Positions 4,011 through 5,573 of a stretch of 5,573 nucleotides of DNA are shown in pieces. The notes below the pieces were generated by a model that was not told the origin of the DNA, made no database searches, and worked only from the letters and a program-made list of their open reading frames with translations. The position numbers and the translations under genes are program-made. Within the stretch, counting starts at the first letter, position 1. Each line of letters starts with the position of its first letter. Origin of the DNA: a virus (lineage: Duplodnaviria > Heunggongvirae > Uroviricota > Caudoviricetes); the IMG/VR virus record IMGVR_UViG_2531839128_000025; one strand, written 5' to 3'.

Positions 4011-4436
4011 GTGGCAAAAGTTTTTACACAAGAAGAGCGGGAAAAAATTAAAGGGCAGGTTGTTGAACTCGTACGCCAGAGTGGGCGCGAGACGTTACGA
4101 CAACTGGAAACTAAAACTGGGGCAACAAGATATCTGATGAGTGTTCTGGCCAGAGAGCTGGTTGCCAGTGGCGATGTATACAACTCTGGTTACGGGTTAT
4201 TCCCGTCTGAACAGGCGCGTAAGGACTGGCAAAATGCCCGTATAAAGCTCTCAAGGGCAAAGCTGAAGAAACCATCTGCGGTTGATCCGGACCTTATCTG
4301 GTCATTACCTGACGGAGAAATACGTCGCTACGATAGTTGTCTAAACATAATCTGTCGCGAGTGCCGGAAGAGCGAAGTTATGCAGCGCATTCTGGCATTT
4401 TATCAGGGAAATGTTAGGTATTTTAGACGTTACTAG
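4011..4436 (+). CDS. hypothetical phage protein, 141 aa, N-terminal winged-helix-like segment; GTG start
   Basis: Strong RBS AGGAGG (4001-4006) 4 nt upstream of GTG at 4011. N-terminal VVELVRQSGRETLRQLETKTGATRYLMSVLARELVASGDVY looks like a wHTH. C-terminal half has a small Cys cluster (CLNIICRECRK). Family not identified; sits where a helicase loader would be in Rac. Confidence 0.7.
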   Translation: MAKVFTQEEREKIKGQVVELVRQSGRETLRQLETKTGATRYLMSVLARELVASGDVYNSGYGLFPSEQARKDWQNARIKLSRAKLKKPSAVDPDLIWSLPDGEIRRYDSCLNIICRECRKSEVMQRILAFYQGNVRYFRRY

Positions 4437-4463
4437 ATTAAAGGGCATTAGTTCAGATATGCA

Positions 4464-4576
4464 TTGACATTTTCATGGCACAAGGTAGAGCTAGCGTGGT
4501 TGTTCGCTTTGTGCCAAGAGTGGTCATTGATAATATTTTGGTGGGTTACATCTGTCAATGTTTCAGGTGATATGAT
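4464..4576 (+). promoter_or_regulatory. candidate promoter/operator region upstream of the AT-rich cargo ORF
   Basis: TTGACA at 4464-4469 with no good -10 at proper spacing. Extended -10 TGaTATGAT at 4568-4576 with no clear -35. 8-bp inverted repeat CATTGACA (4462-4469) / TGTCAATG (4553-4560), and a third CATTGA at 4525. Weak hairpin GGCACAA (4477-4483) / TTGTGCC (4509-4515). All read by eye; none conclusive. Confidence 0.25.
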
Positions 4577-4663
4577 ATACAAATAGCCAGACTTAGACTG
4601 GCATGCTGTTTATTTTTATATTATGGGTGTGCCACATGGATTTAAAACTTATTGAGATATGAC

Positions 4664-5573
4664 ATGGATACTTTTCATAATATTTTGCTTGAGCACATAG
4701 ACAGCCTTTTAAAAGAGAGACTTGATTTATCTGGTGACGCTGATATCGAAAAAGAAATTAATAACCTAATTCCCAAAATAGCCATTGTCGTTAAAAAATC
4801 TCTTATTGGCTCGGCCAATGCAATGCTTAGAGAACATCGTTCTCTTTGTGATGAATTTGTTGAGAGAAATATTTCAAGATGGGCAGAGGCTTTTGATTTG
4901 CTCGAAACACTTATAGTGATATGCACGGAGTCCGGTGAAGAGTTCAATCGTTCTTATAGACCACAAGCTGCCTCTGAAGAGGATGTGGTTTTTGATTTAG
5001 TCGTTCGGCATCACGCAAGAGCTTGCCACATCGCCAACGAAATTTTGTGTCTCTTAAAGAATGGATTTGCAGATGCTGCCCAAGCGAGATGGCGAGCACT
5101 TCATGAGGTAGCGGCCACAGCTATGTTTATAGCAAAGCATGGAAAAGAGTGTGCTGAGCGCTTTTACTACCATGAAGTGGTTGATTCATATACTGGAATG
5201 TTGGAACACAAAAAGTACGAGCACCGGTTAGAAGCAAAAGGTCCAACTATTGAAGAAATAGCTGAGTGTAAAGTTCAATTTGATCTATTAATAAAAAAAT
5301 ATGGCAAAAAATATGCAGATAATTATGGCTGGGCATCTTATATTTTCCCTAACCATAATAAAGTGGGGTTTGGAGCTATTGAGAAAGATGTTCAGTTAGA
5401 ACACATGCGCCCTTATTATAAGTGGGCGAGTCAGAATGTACACACCGGTTCCAAGGCAATGAGAAATAGGCTTGGTCTCTGTGAAACTGGTGATGATATA
5501 TTATTGGTCGGGCAAAGTGATTCAGGAATGGCTGATCCAGCCCATGCTACTGCTATTAGTTTGATGCAGATTA
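4664..5573 (+). CDS. AT-rich cargo ORF of unknown function, partial (303+ codons, 3' end beyond window); candidate accessory/defence gene with HEPN-like R-x4-H motif
   Basis: ATG at 4664 opens a frame with no stop to the window end (protein starts MDTFHNILLEHIDSLLKERLDLSGDADIEKEINNLIPK...). It is absent from the supplied track only because it runs off the window. Strong A/T bias in codons, unlike the replication genes upstream. Weak SD (GAGA). Contains RWRALH (R-x4-H). No family confidently recognised. Confidence 0.75.
   Translation, partial: MDTFHNILLEHIDSLLKERLDLSGDADIEKEINNLIPKIAIVVKKSLIGSANAMLREHRSLCDEFVERNISRWAEAFDLLETLIVICTESGEEFNRSYRPQAASEEDVVFDLVVRHHARACHIANEILCLLKNGFADAAQARWRALHEVAATAMFIAKHGKECAERFYYHEVVDSYTGMLEHKKYEHRLEAKGPTIEEIAECKVQFDLLIKKYGKKYADNYGWASYIFPNHNKVGFGAIEKDVQLEHMRPYYKWASQNVHTGSKAMRNRLGLCETGDDILLVGQSDSGMADPAHATAISLMQI

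Follow-up and report, generated by a model that had tools for sequence, protein, structure and literature searches.

What is an AT-rich gene doing directly behind the replication genes of a lambdoid prophage, and how could it have come to be there? The question is raised by the end of a 5,573-nucleotide stretch of viral DNA (IMG/VR virus record IMGVR_UViG_2531839128_000025; the whole stretch is called the window here), which covers the early part of a Qin-like lambdoid prophage at rspAB. The last 1137 bases of the window (4437-5573) hold a spacer and a long open reading frame (ORF) cut by the window edge, which the initial annotation took to be cargo of no recognisable family inserted in a moron or defence hotspot. 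The ORF encodes a protein of the Pfam family DUF5677, and it is carried by a cassette of about 1.3 kb that consists of a left (L-type) boundary element, a 137-nt leader, one 341-aa gene and a right (R-type) boundary element. On balance we lean towards reading this self-contained cassette as single-gene defence cargo in a slot of Qin-like prophages. The boundary elements are the least expected result.

The variable slot and its cargo cassette

The prophage runs, in order, from the DicF RNA and the dicB side with ydfABC through a cI-like repressor, Cro/YdaS and the cII-like YdaT to the replisome organiser, a DUF977 (Ren-like) gene, the cargo gene, sok/hok, rem, DUF968, rusA and Q. The DUF977 gene closes the replication module and anchors the left side of a variable slot; of 5426 complete E. 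coli genomes, 4080 have it and 74 have the cargo gene. Eleven sister prophages were sampled, and their slots hold other cargo, among it QueH (three times), an alpha/beta hydrolase, small ORFs, Kiwa (KwaA 1e-101, KwaB 3e-159), IetA/IetS (IetA 9e-143), a RelA/SpoT protein that is the candidate system PDC-S33 (5e-119), and a type II methyltransferase with an ATPase or, elsewhere, an orphan methyltransferase. The Kiwa, Iet and PDC-S33 cargoes lie in the same position, after DUF977 and before hok/sok, and in the PDC-S33 prophage the cargo is flanked by the same L and R boundary elements as the DUF5677 cassette. Their proteins are unrelated to the DUF5677 protein and so support the character of the slot, not the function of this protein. 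The slot is a variable site where related phages carry known anti-phage systems, and these contents show here what the initial annotation had called a classic moron/defence hotspot. The same hotspot point has been made for Gifsy-1 in the HepS paper (PMC13043305).

The cargo gene was described correctly as a 227-bp intergenic region (4437-4663) followed by a long ORF, which starts with ATG at 4664 and has no stop through 5572/5573, giving 303 codons. The C-terminus does lie outside the window: extension to E. coli 55989 recovered the missing 38 codons and placed the full-length gene at 12228-13253 of the extended locus (L001), encoding 341 aa (WP_000379313.1, annotated 'DUF5677 domain-containing protein'). 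Positions 4437-5573 are 100% identical in E. coli 55989 and at least 72 complete E. coli chromosomes. The abrupt drop in G+C content beyond the replication module also stands, from 0.47-0.54 to 0.37-0.40 (replisome organiser gene 0.539, DUF977 0.472, spacer 0.370, ORF 0.398, full gene 0.384), with G+C at third codon positions of 0.32 for the cargo gene vs 0.54. The immunity genes at 1618-2419 likewise have a G+C content near 0.41, so low G+C is not peculiar to the cargo gene.

Presence and absence, deviant composition and a recurrent variable site were all found, as for a moron or hotspot gene. In the moron concept of Juhala and Hendrix for lambdoid phages, such an extra gene has a deviant composition, is present or absent among similar phages and possibly has its own promoter and terminator, and the first two of these hold for the cargo gene, the third perhaps. 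It differs in that the classical definition is without conserved palindromic boundary elements common to plasmids and islands.

The gene is found well beyond this slot, with copies 69-89% identical in several kinds of element. The Klebsiella copy occupies the same slot in a different lambdoid prophage with other replication genes. In Providencia rettgeri, the cassette lies in an island (L017) beside a P4-type integrase and ahead of a dCTP deaminase defence gene (PADLOC dCTPase 1.3e-168; L017 8334-9971). The Enterobacter hormaechei copy is at the cargo end of an int-AlpA-D5 primase island, the Serratia copy adjoins a P4-like satellite and HipAB, the Salmonella copy is on a Rep3/ParA plasmid after MazE-PIN, and the Pectobacterium copy precedes RHH-ParE. 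Two large proteins were seen near these copies. Further on, the Providencia island (L017 14073 onward) encodes a 2147-aa protein whose only Pfam matches, to NACHT/AAA_22, are faint, and in E. hormaechei (L003-L006 9200-11533) a 777-aa protein with a C-terminal SEC-C motif, which has a weak, sub-threshold resemblance to GapS1 (E 0.002), lies 3' of the DUF5677 gene.

Comparison of these copies set the limits of the cassette. Among the E. coli, Providencia, Salmonella, Pectobacterium and Serratia copies, 86-90% nucleotide identity starts at 4502-4527 and ends about 96-109 nt past the stop codon, and in sister prophages with other cargo, backbone homology is lost at 4517-4528 and regained exactly at the cassette end. 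With QueH, PDC-S33 or small-ORF prophages this homology reaches L001 12081-12092, which is window 4517-4528. The break in composition that had been noted is real, but the true backbone junction is at about 4517-4528 and not at the stop at 4436. Window positions 4497-5573 are thus the left four-fifths of the cassette (Table 1).

The L and R elements are about 31 nt long, in direct orientation and partly alike, with the consensus sequences GTCCGC-TTTGTGCCAGAA-GCGGAC-GTTG (L-type) and TTCCGC-TCCTCGCTCATA-GCGGAC (R-type). Their similarity is partial, in that a matrix built solely from left copies passes 3-4 of 6 right copies at the 99.99th percentile (cross-validation). A matrix derived entirely from unrelated viral contigs gives the L element of the window a score of 28.0; on shuffled DNA, a comparable matrix from the training copies reached 15.2 at most. 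An exact scan found the R-type core in 44 IMG/VR viral contigs with unrelated flanks (loci L119-L162), and 28 of the 36 contigs with enough sequence have, on the strand of R, an L-type element 0.6-4.7 kb upstream; for the opposite strand the count is 5 of 36. Tandem arrays of L/R units occur, and further elements are at L017 6835, 8103, 8144, 12111 and 13105.

Cargo between such elements was collected from unrelated enterobacterial viral contigs, where 34 bracketed units hold 57 ORFs. Roughly a third of the bracketed cargoes are recognised anti-phage systems and roughly two thirds of the bracketed genes are without a PADLOC match. The defence cargo comprises PtuA (1e-187; Septu), SduA (8e-166; Shedu), PDC-M01A/B, PDC-S33, DarT/DarG and PD-T4-5, and two AriA-like ATPases, Abi_alpha and a deaminase were also bracketed.

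No Rfam family matched the L and R elements, no description of them was found in the literature searched, and palindromes or hairpins are unmentioned in two major hotspot papers. They are most like integron attC sites and IS200/IS605 elements, with which they share short units of 1-3 genes, conserved imperfect palindromes, direct orientation, occasional tandem arrays with composite junctions and cargo rich in defence genes. They differ in that the loci read showed neither an IntI nor a Y1 transposase gene close by. Compared by eye with the attC R''/R' boxes, the boundary palindromes match loosely, at 5-6 of 7 positions, but here loops as well as stems are conserved, and the loops differ between L and R. 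The R-type loop holds CGCTC(A/T)TA and in several copies (e.g. L119, L123, L131, L150) exactly CGCTCTTA, which we take to be the lambda boxA sequence; this may be coincidence or a link to antitermination.

The cassette is very probably a mobile accessory unit. Candidate routes for the action of the boundary elements are folded single-strand recombination and short-homology exchange by Red/RecET.

Table 1. Coordinates of the cassette, its parts and the adjacent backbone; positions are those of the window unless marked L001.
Feature	Position	Strand	Basis or remark
DUF977 / Ren-like gene	4011..4436	+	Pfam DUF977 E 1.9e-28; phrog_142 'Ren-like exclusion protein' E 5e-45
Backbone part of spacer, common to sister prophages with other cargo	4437..4496	+	nucleotide homology
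Left (L-type) boundary element, imperfect palindrome TGGTTGTTCGCTTTGTGCCAAGAGTGGTCAT	4497..4527	+	at backbone/cassette breakpoint
Cassette leader, 137 nt, travels with the gene into other mobile elements	4527..4663	+	86-90% identity, four copies
Terminator-like hairpin GCCAGACTTAGACTGGC then T-rich run, in leader	4586..4616	+	consensus scan
Candidate cassette promoter TAGACT-17-TATATT	4594..4622	+	9/12 consensus positions
DUF5677 protein gene	4664..5573	+	codons 1-303 of 341 inside window; extended end ~5689
Other invariant polar residues: E126 (5039-5041), W223 (5330-5332), Y251, H260 (5441-5443), G283-x-S285 (S285 5516-5518)	5039..5518	+	alignments A5, A2/A7; probably in one assumed pocket with R142-E148
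Codons R142-W-R144-A-L-H147-E148	5087..5107	+	family's most conserved motif
Right (R-type) boundary element	L001 13332-13362		outside window, 81 nt past stop

The DUF5677 protein and its conserved residues

The protein had been thought to fit no family, which is wrong. Residues 112-274 match Pfam DUF5677 (PF18928; E 5.6e-34, 118 bits vs a gathering cut-off of 27.1), the protein aligns end to end with phrog_27456 (PHROG 27456; E 5.6e-187), and all 109 of 109 aligned relatives also match DUF5677. The window protein is a full member of both families, and membership explains little since the family is without known function or solved structure. The family comprises 3121 cluster representatives (50% identity, E <= 1e-3); one peptide pattern alone leads to 442 species genomes of Proteobacteria, Chloroflexota, Bacillota, candidate phyla radiation (CPR) bacteria and Archaea, and relatives are also found on haloarchaeal and actinobacterial plasmids, in 39 IMG/VR viral contigs and in Bacillus phage SPR. 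SPR is the sole INPHARED phage with a relative (spr_109, L101 6001-7122; 29% identity over 99% of the query), which sits amid unannotated genes of this SPbeta-like phage. A conserved N-terminal extension of about 70-100 residues, a helix and then an acidic stretch, is present in 68 of 151 listed representatives (about 45%; P0134-P0269), and P0169 and P0219 are fused to 320-520 unrelated N-terminal residues. No Pfam domain was found in the N-terminal extension of the 420-aa forms or in the two longer fusions.

The ratio of nonsynonymous to synonymous substitution rates (dN/dS) of the cargo gene is 0.17-0.30 with four orthologues, and the DUF5677 protein is thus under purifying selection and the gene a real coding gene. 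Because dS relative to the Providencia and Serratia copies is just 0.22-0.41, recent transfer of the gene is suggested. The product is a soluble, acidic protein (isoelectric point 5.8, 38.7 kDa) without a membrane segment. In E. coli isolate F1005 (L002 12436-13472) the gene is frameshifted into ORFs of 248 and 108 aa, with IS421 right after hokD, and the cargo is therefore decaying in some lineages.

An AlphaFold model from the 109-sequence alignment is wholly helical, with a predicted local distance difference test score (pLDDT) of 94.6 and a predicted template modelling score (pTM) of 0.90, which bears out, as a prediction, the all-alpha protein that the initial annotation had proposed. An earlier run on a 32-sequence alignment had a pLDDT of 70.6, and the Foldseek search from that model gave noise. 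With the later model the predicted fold is confident, and the Foldseek search of the full protein against the 2026 copy of the PDB returned no solved structural relative (nothing at E <= 1e-3; TM scores at most 0.27). Sequence profiles matched no chain in the same copy of the PDB. Weak Pfam matches of single members to Abi_alpha, YfbR-like and Ist1 were set aside as the noise level expected from 109 scans.

Conserved positions were sought in an alignment (A5) at 23-31% identity that spans Bacteria, Archaea, Actinobacteria and a Bacillus phage and contains 11 divergent members. The invariant residues are W73, E126, L130, G134, R142, R144, L146, E148, G214, W223, Y251, H260, G283 and S285. As far as sequence can tell, the Arg, Glu, His and Ser residues of this set point to an enzyme or to a pocket that holds a ligand tightly. 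The sequence RWRALH (residues 142-147, nucleotides 5087-5104) is part of the most conserved motif, with conservation among 151 representatives at 35-54% identity of 0.99 for R142, 0.99 for W143, 1.00 for R144, 0.98 for H147 and 1.00 for E148. Among the 11 divergent members, H147 (5102-5104), otherwise well conserved, is Tyr in two (P0239; L116:3953-5365), one of them archaeal, and W143 is Val in one, whereas R142, R144 and E148 never vary.

The initial annotation had compared RWRALH with the R-x4-H motif of HEPN RNases. By this account R142-x4-H147 would be a metal-independent active site, and the protein an abortive-infection toxin like HepS, Tha, RnlA and AbiV. The motif and its 98-99% conservation are real, the predicted all-alpha protein has an up-down helical core, and HepS, a solo HEPN defence protein, holds the equivalent slot of Gifsy-1. 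By published criteria, HEPN proteins are marked by an R-x4-6-H motif where helix 3 ends, by a polar N, D or H after the Arg, and by an upstream Ex3[KR] motif (PMC3710099). R142-W-R-A-L-H147 has the spacing, but the Arg is followed by Trp143, which is 99% conserved, where HEPN has N, D or H; in the model the motif opens the 54-residue helix 136-189, 6-11 residues into its start and past a 3-residue turn, instead of closing helix 3; and the invariant E126 is followed by I-L-C-L, with no K or R at +4. His147 is replaced by Tyr in two members, yet R144 and E148, which are without a role in HEPN chemistry, are invariant. No HEPN family was among the Pfam matches of the 109 members, no HEPN chain was found with profiles A1 and A2 against the PDB at E <= 10, and Foldseek gave none at E <= 1e-3. 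The Gifsy-1 record of strain LT2 contains no ORF with the R100-x4-H105 of HepS. As only the spacing fits, the protein is not filed as HEPN; a HEPN-family toxin is an improbable explanation, and HEPN-type RNase chemistry in this protein is correspondingly very unlikely.

HepS is similar to the window protein in being a single, partner-less protein between the replication and late-regulatory genes of a lambdoid prophage, in having an R-x4-H motif, and in showing that a solo defence protein can occupy this kind of slot (PMC13043305). It is constitutively tolerated in Gifsy-1 (PMC13043305). The window protein differs in its 341-aa length, in departing from the HEPN hallmarks and in having no PDB or Foldseek match. 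The resemblance to HepS is one of position and lifestyle, without homology.

What the cassette gene may do

A partner gene was looked for in 146 immediate neighbouring ORFs from 80 diverse genomes. None is conserved, the commonest neighbour family being a transposase (3 of 146), and the missing partner genes predicted from the window are absent from the cassette contexts as well. Across five contexts the cassette has one ORF only, with no toxin-antitoxin partner and no Rfam match within it. The sok antisense RNA (RF01794, 109.6 bits; L001 13672-13846) and hokD (13841-13996) just downstream are a separate backbone module and not partners of the cassette; this type I toxin-antitoxin module thus accounts for some of the 588-bp 'gap' that follows the cargo gene. 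Judging from sequence, the DUF5677 protein probably works alone or with host factors. Scattered among the neighbours are defence genes, namely type IIG restriction-modification, PD-Lambda-1, a cyclic oligonucleotide-based anti-phage signalling system (CBASS) cyclase, PsyrA, PDC-M01B, PDC-S15 and PDC-S48.

The known kind to which the gene belongs is prophage hotspot cargo, and its domain is common to it and DitA. Aditi, with its protein DitA, is reportedly a defence system described by Millman et al. in 2022. According to a supplementary table, residues 276-427 of DitA match Pfam DUF5677 with an HHpred probability of 99 (PMC13092281, supplement), which places DUF5677 within a validated anti-phage system. 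In that supplement the E. coli DUF5677 protein WP_235778200.1, which is a 219-aa fragment, has a DefensePredictor log-odds of 5.74 for defence and matches DitA by HHblits at a probability of 96; in the accessible portion of the article's text this protein was not found among the tested units (PMC13092281). It could not be confirmed as a fragment of this very gene, and an adjacent accession is annotated on the frameshifted copy. WP_000379313.1 itself is absent from the literature searched, in which just two papers name DUF5677 in their main text. DUF5677 is also enriched beside serine recombinases in Bacillota defence contigs (PMC12632615). In the present analysis, a Planococcus plasmid copy likewise follows a recombinase gene. 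The window protein differs from Aditi in being without the N-terminal extension of about 275 residues of DitA and without a DitB-like partner.

Our proposal is that the cassette was dropped into the slot between the replication module and hok/sok-rem-DUF968-rusA-Q and that the gene would be expressed from its own promoter in the lysogen. The product would be a stand-alone enzyme with a pocket formed by R142, R144, E148, E126, H260 and S285 together with W73 and W223. On sensing infection it may attack a nucleic acid, nucleotide or protein target in the style of abortive infection, and so would shield the lysogen from other phages or mobile elements. Spread of the cassette is probably through recombination at its boundary elements. 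A role in anti-phage or inter-element conflict is, we think, somewhat probable.

Several results weigh against this proposal. A defence role for this protein is so far a prediction. PADLOC 2.0 and the antiphage models of NCBIfam 20 did not match the DUF5677 protein, and PADLOC gave matches for slot-mates in sister prophages and none for this protein. The PADLOC DitA/DitB models gave no match to the window protein at E <= 0.1 and matched 0 of 47 DUF5677 members at E <= 1; the Aditi link thus rests on the one supplementary table (PMC13092281), not reproduced here. When a distant Bacillota DUF5677 ORF was challenged with six phages in E. faecalis, the five ORFs reported as protective did not include it (PMC12632615). 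The neighbour-based enrichment in defence genes is without a formal background control, the other neighbours are housekeeping genes, and many distant homologues are among ordinary chromosomal genes. The slot also holds QueH and the alpha/beta hydrolase, and L/R elements also bracket EAL, MFS, LysR and GNAT genes. The candidate promoter at 4594-4622 is a weak consensus match, and clustering of the invariant residues in one pocket is assumed.

Some of these points suit cargo without a defence role, either a metabolic or stress enzyme or a selfish, addiction- or toxin-like stabiliser of elements. Non-defence genes travel in the same slot and cassettes (QueH may benefit the host), close copies lie beside toxin-antitoxin pairs on a plasmid and in islets, distant homologues often have housekeeping neighbours, and the Bacillota homologue gave no phage protection. 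Such cargo is nevertheless unlikely: no context has a metabolic operon or a conserved partner, and no antitoxin-sized partner gene is conserved, while the immediate neighbours and slot-mates are repeatedly defence systems, the domain is part of DitA of validated Aditi, and a machine-learning model calls an E. coli DUF5677 protein defensive. Service to the phage itself, as a counter-defence or host-takeover factor for lytic growth in the early rightward operon, would agree with the co-directional position of the gene in that operon, downstream of cro, the cII-like gene and the replication genes, and with the relatives in viral contigs and in SPR. It would not explain the same cassette in a plasmid, an integrase island and chromosomal islets, nor the hundreds of homologues in genomes without phage genes nearby, and a terminator-like hairpin and a promoter-like site lie between the gene and the upstream operon. 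Typical anti-defence proteins are small and fast-evolving, unlike a 341-aa protein conserved across phyla. We regard this explanation, too, as improbable.

If the solo member defends E. coli, as favoured here, DUF5677 would gain a function, Aditi a handle and effector chemistry probably a new entry. Tentatively, and with some doubt, we suggest the joint claim that solo DUF5677 proteins are a new, widespread class of single-protein effectors and that the L/R elements are an undescribed system of cassette exchange. The effector class would then span more than 3000 clusters (50% identity) in Bacteria and Archaea, with a fold without a solved relative and a new catalytic centre of R-W-R-x-L-H/Y-E with E126, H260 and S285, and solo DUF5677 would be the stripped-down core of DitA. 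The exchange system would shuttle defence genes among lambdoid prophage hotspots, satellites, plasmids and islands of Enterobacterales. The L/R elements offer a specific and testable explanation for the turnover of cargo in prophage defence hotspots, and a cheap sequence marker for harvesting uncharacterised cargo and new defence genes.

The leader and further features of the window

The leader is 77% identical to that of the Klebsiella copy from 4545. No Rfam family matched the leader RNA and its folding is ordinary (z = -0.53). The hairpin GCCAGACTTAGACTGGC is kept in Klebsiella with C-G changed to T-A at one pair, and in Providencia has one mismatched pair (by eye). The candidate promoter would start transcription near 4630 and is followed by a GAGA Shine-Dalgarno-like sequence at 4654-4657; an A/T-rich -10-like hexamer occupies the matching position in both the Providencia and the Klebsiella copy. 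Promoter-like elements of its own, as the initial annotation proposed for the spacer, are present but not above chance, with 6 matches found vs 4.0 +/- 2.7 expected in shuffled sequence. A moron-type arrangement of promoter and terminator is thus represented by the 9/12 match and the overlapping hairpin and T-run, with counts not above those in shuffled sequence, and we infer that 4594-4622 may be the cassette's own promoter. A minus-strand sigma-70 match at 4558-4530 (TTGACA-17-TATTAT, 11/12), which straddles the left end of the cassette and points back to the DUF977 gene, was rejected as it is not conserved in the Klebsiella or Providencia copies.

The left part of the window contains the DicF antisense RNA at 224-275 on the minus strand (Rfam RF00039, 76.7 bits, E 3e-16) and, next to it, a sub-threshold STnc100-like match at 58-212 on the same strand (35.3 bits, cut-off 47); the two agree with a dicB region of Qin type. 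Parts of a 271-aa ORF at 618-1433 on the minus strand match three PHROGs (37620, 35040 and 1744). Related prophages annotate separate small genes (ydfA/B/C, DUF1391) at the equivalent place, and this ORF could be a fusion or an over-long mechanical ORF.

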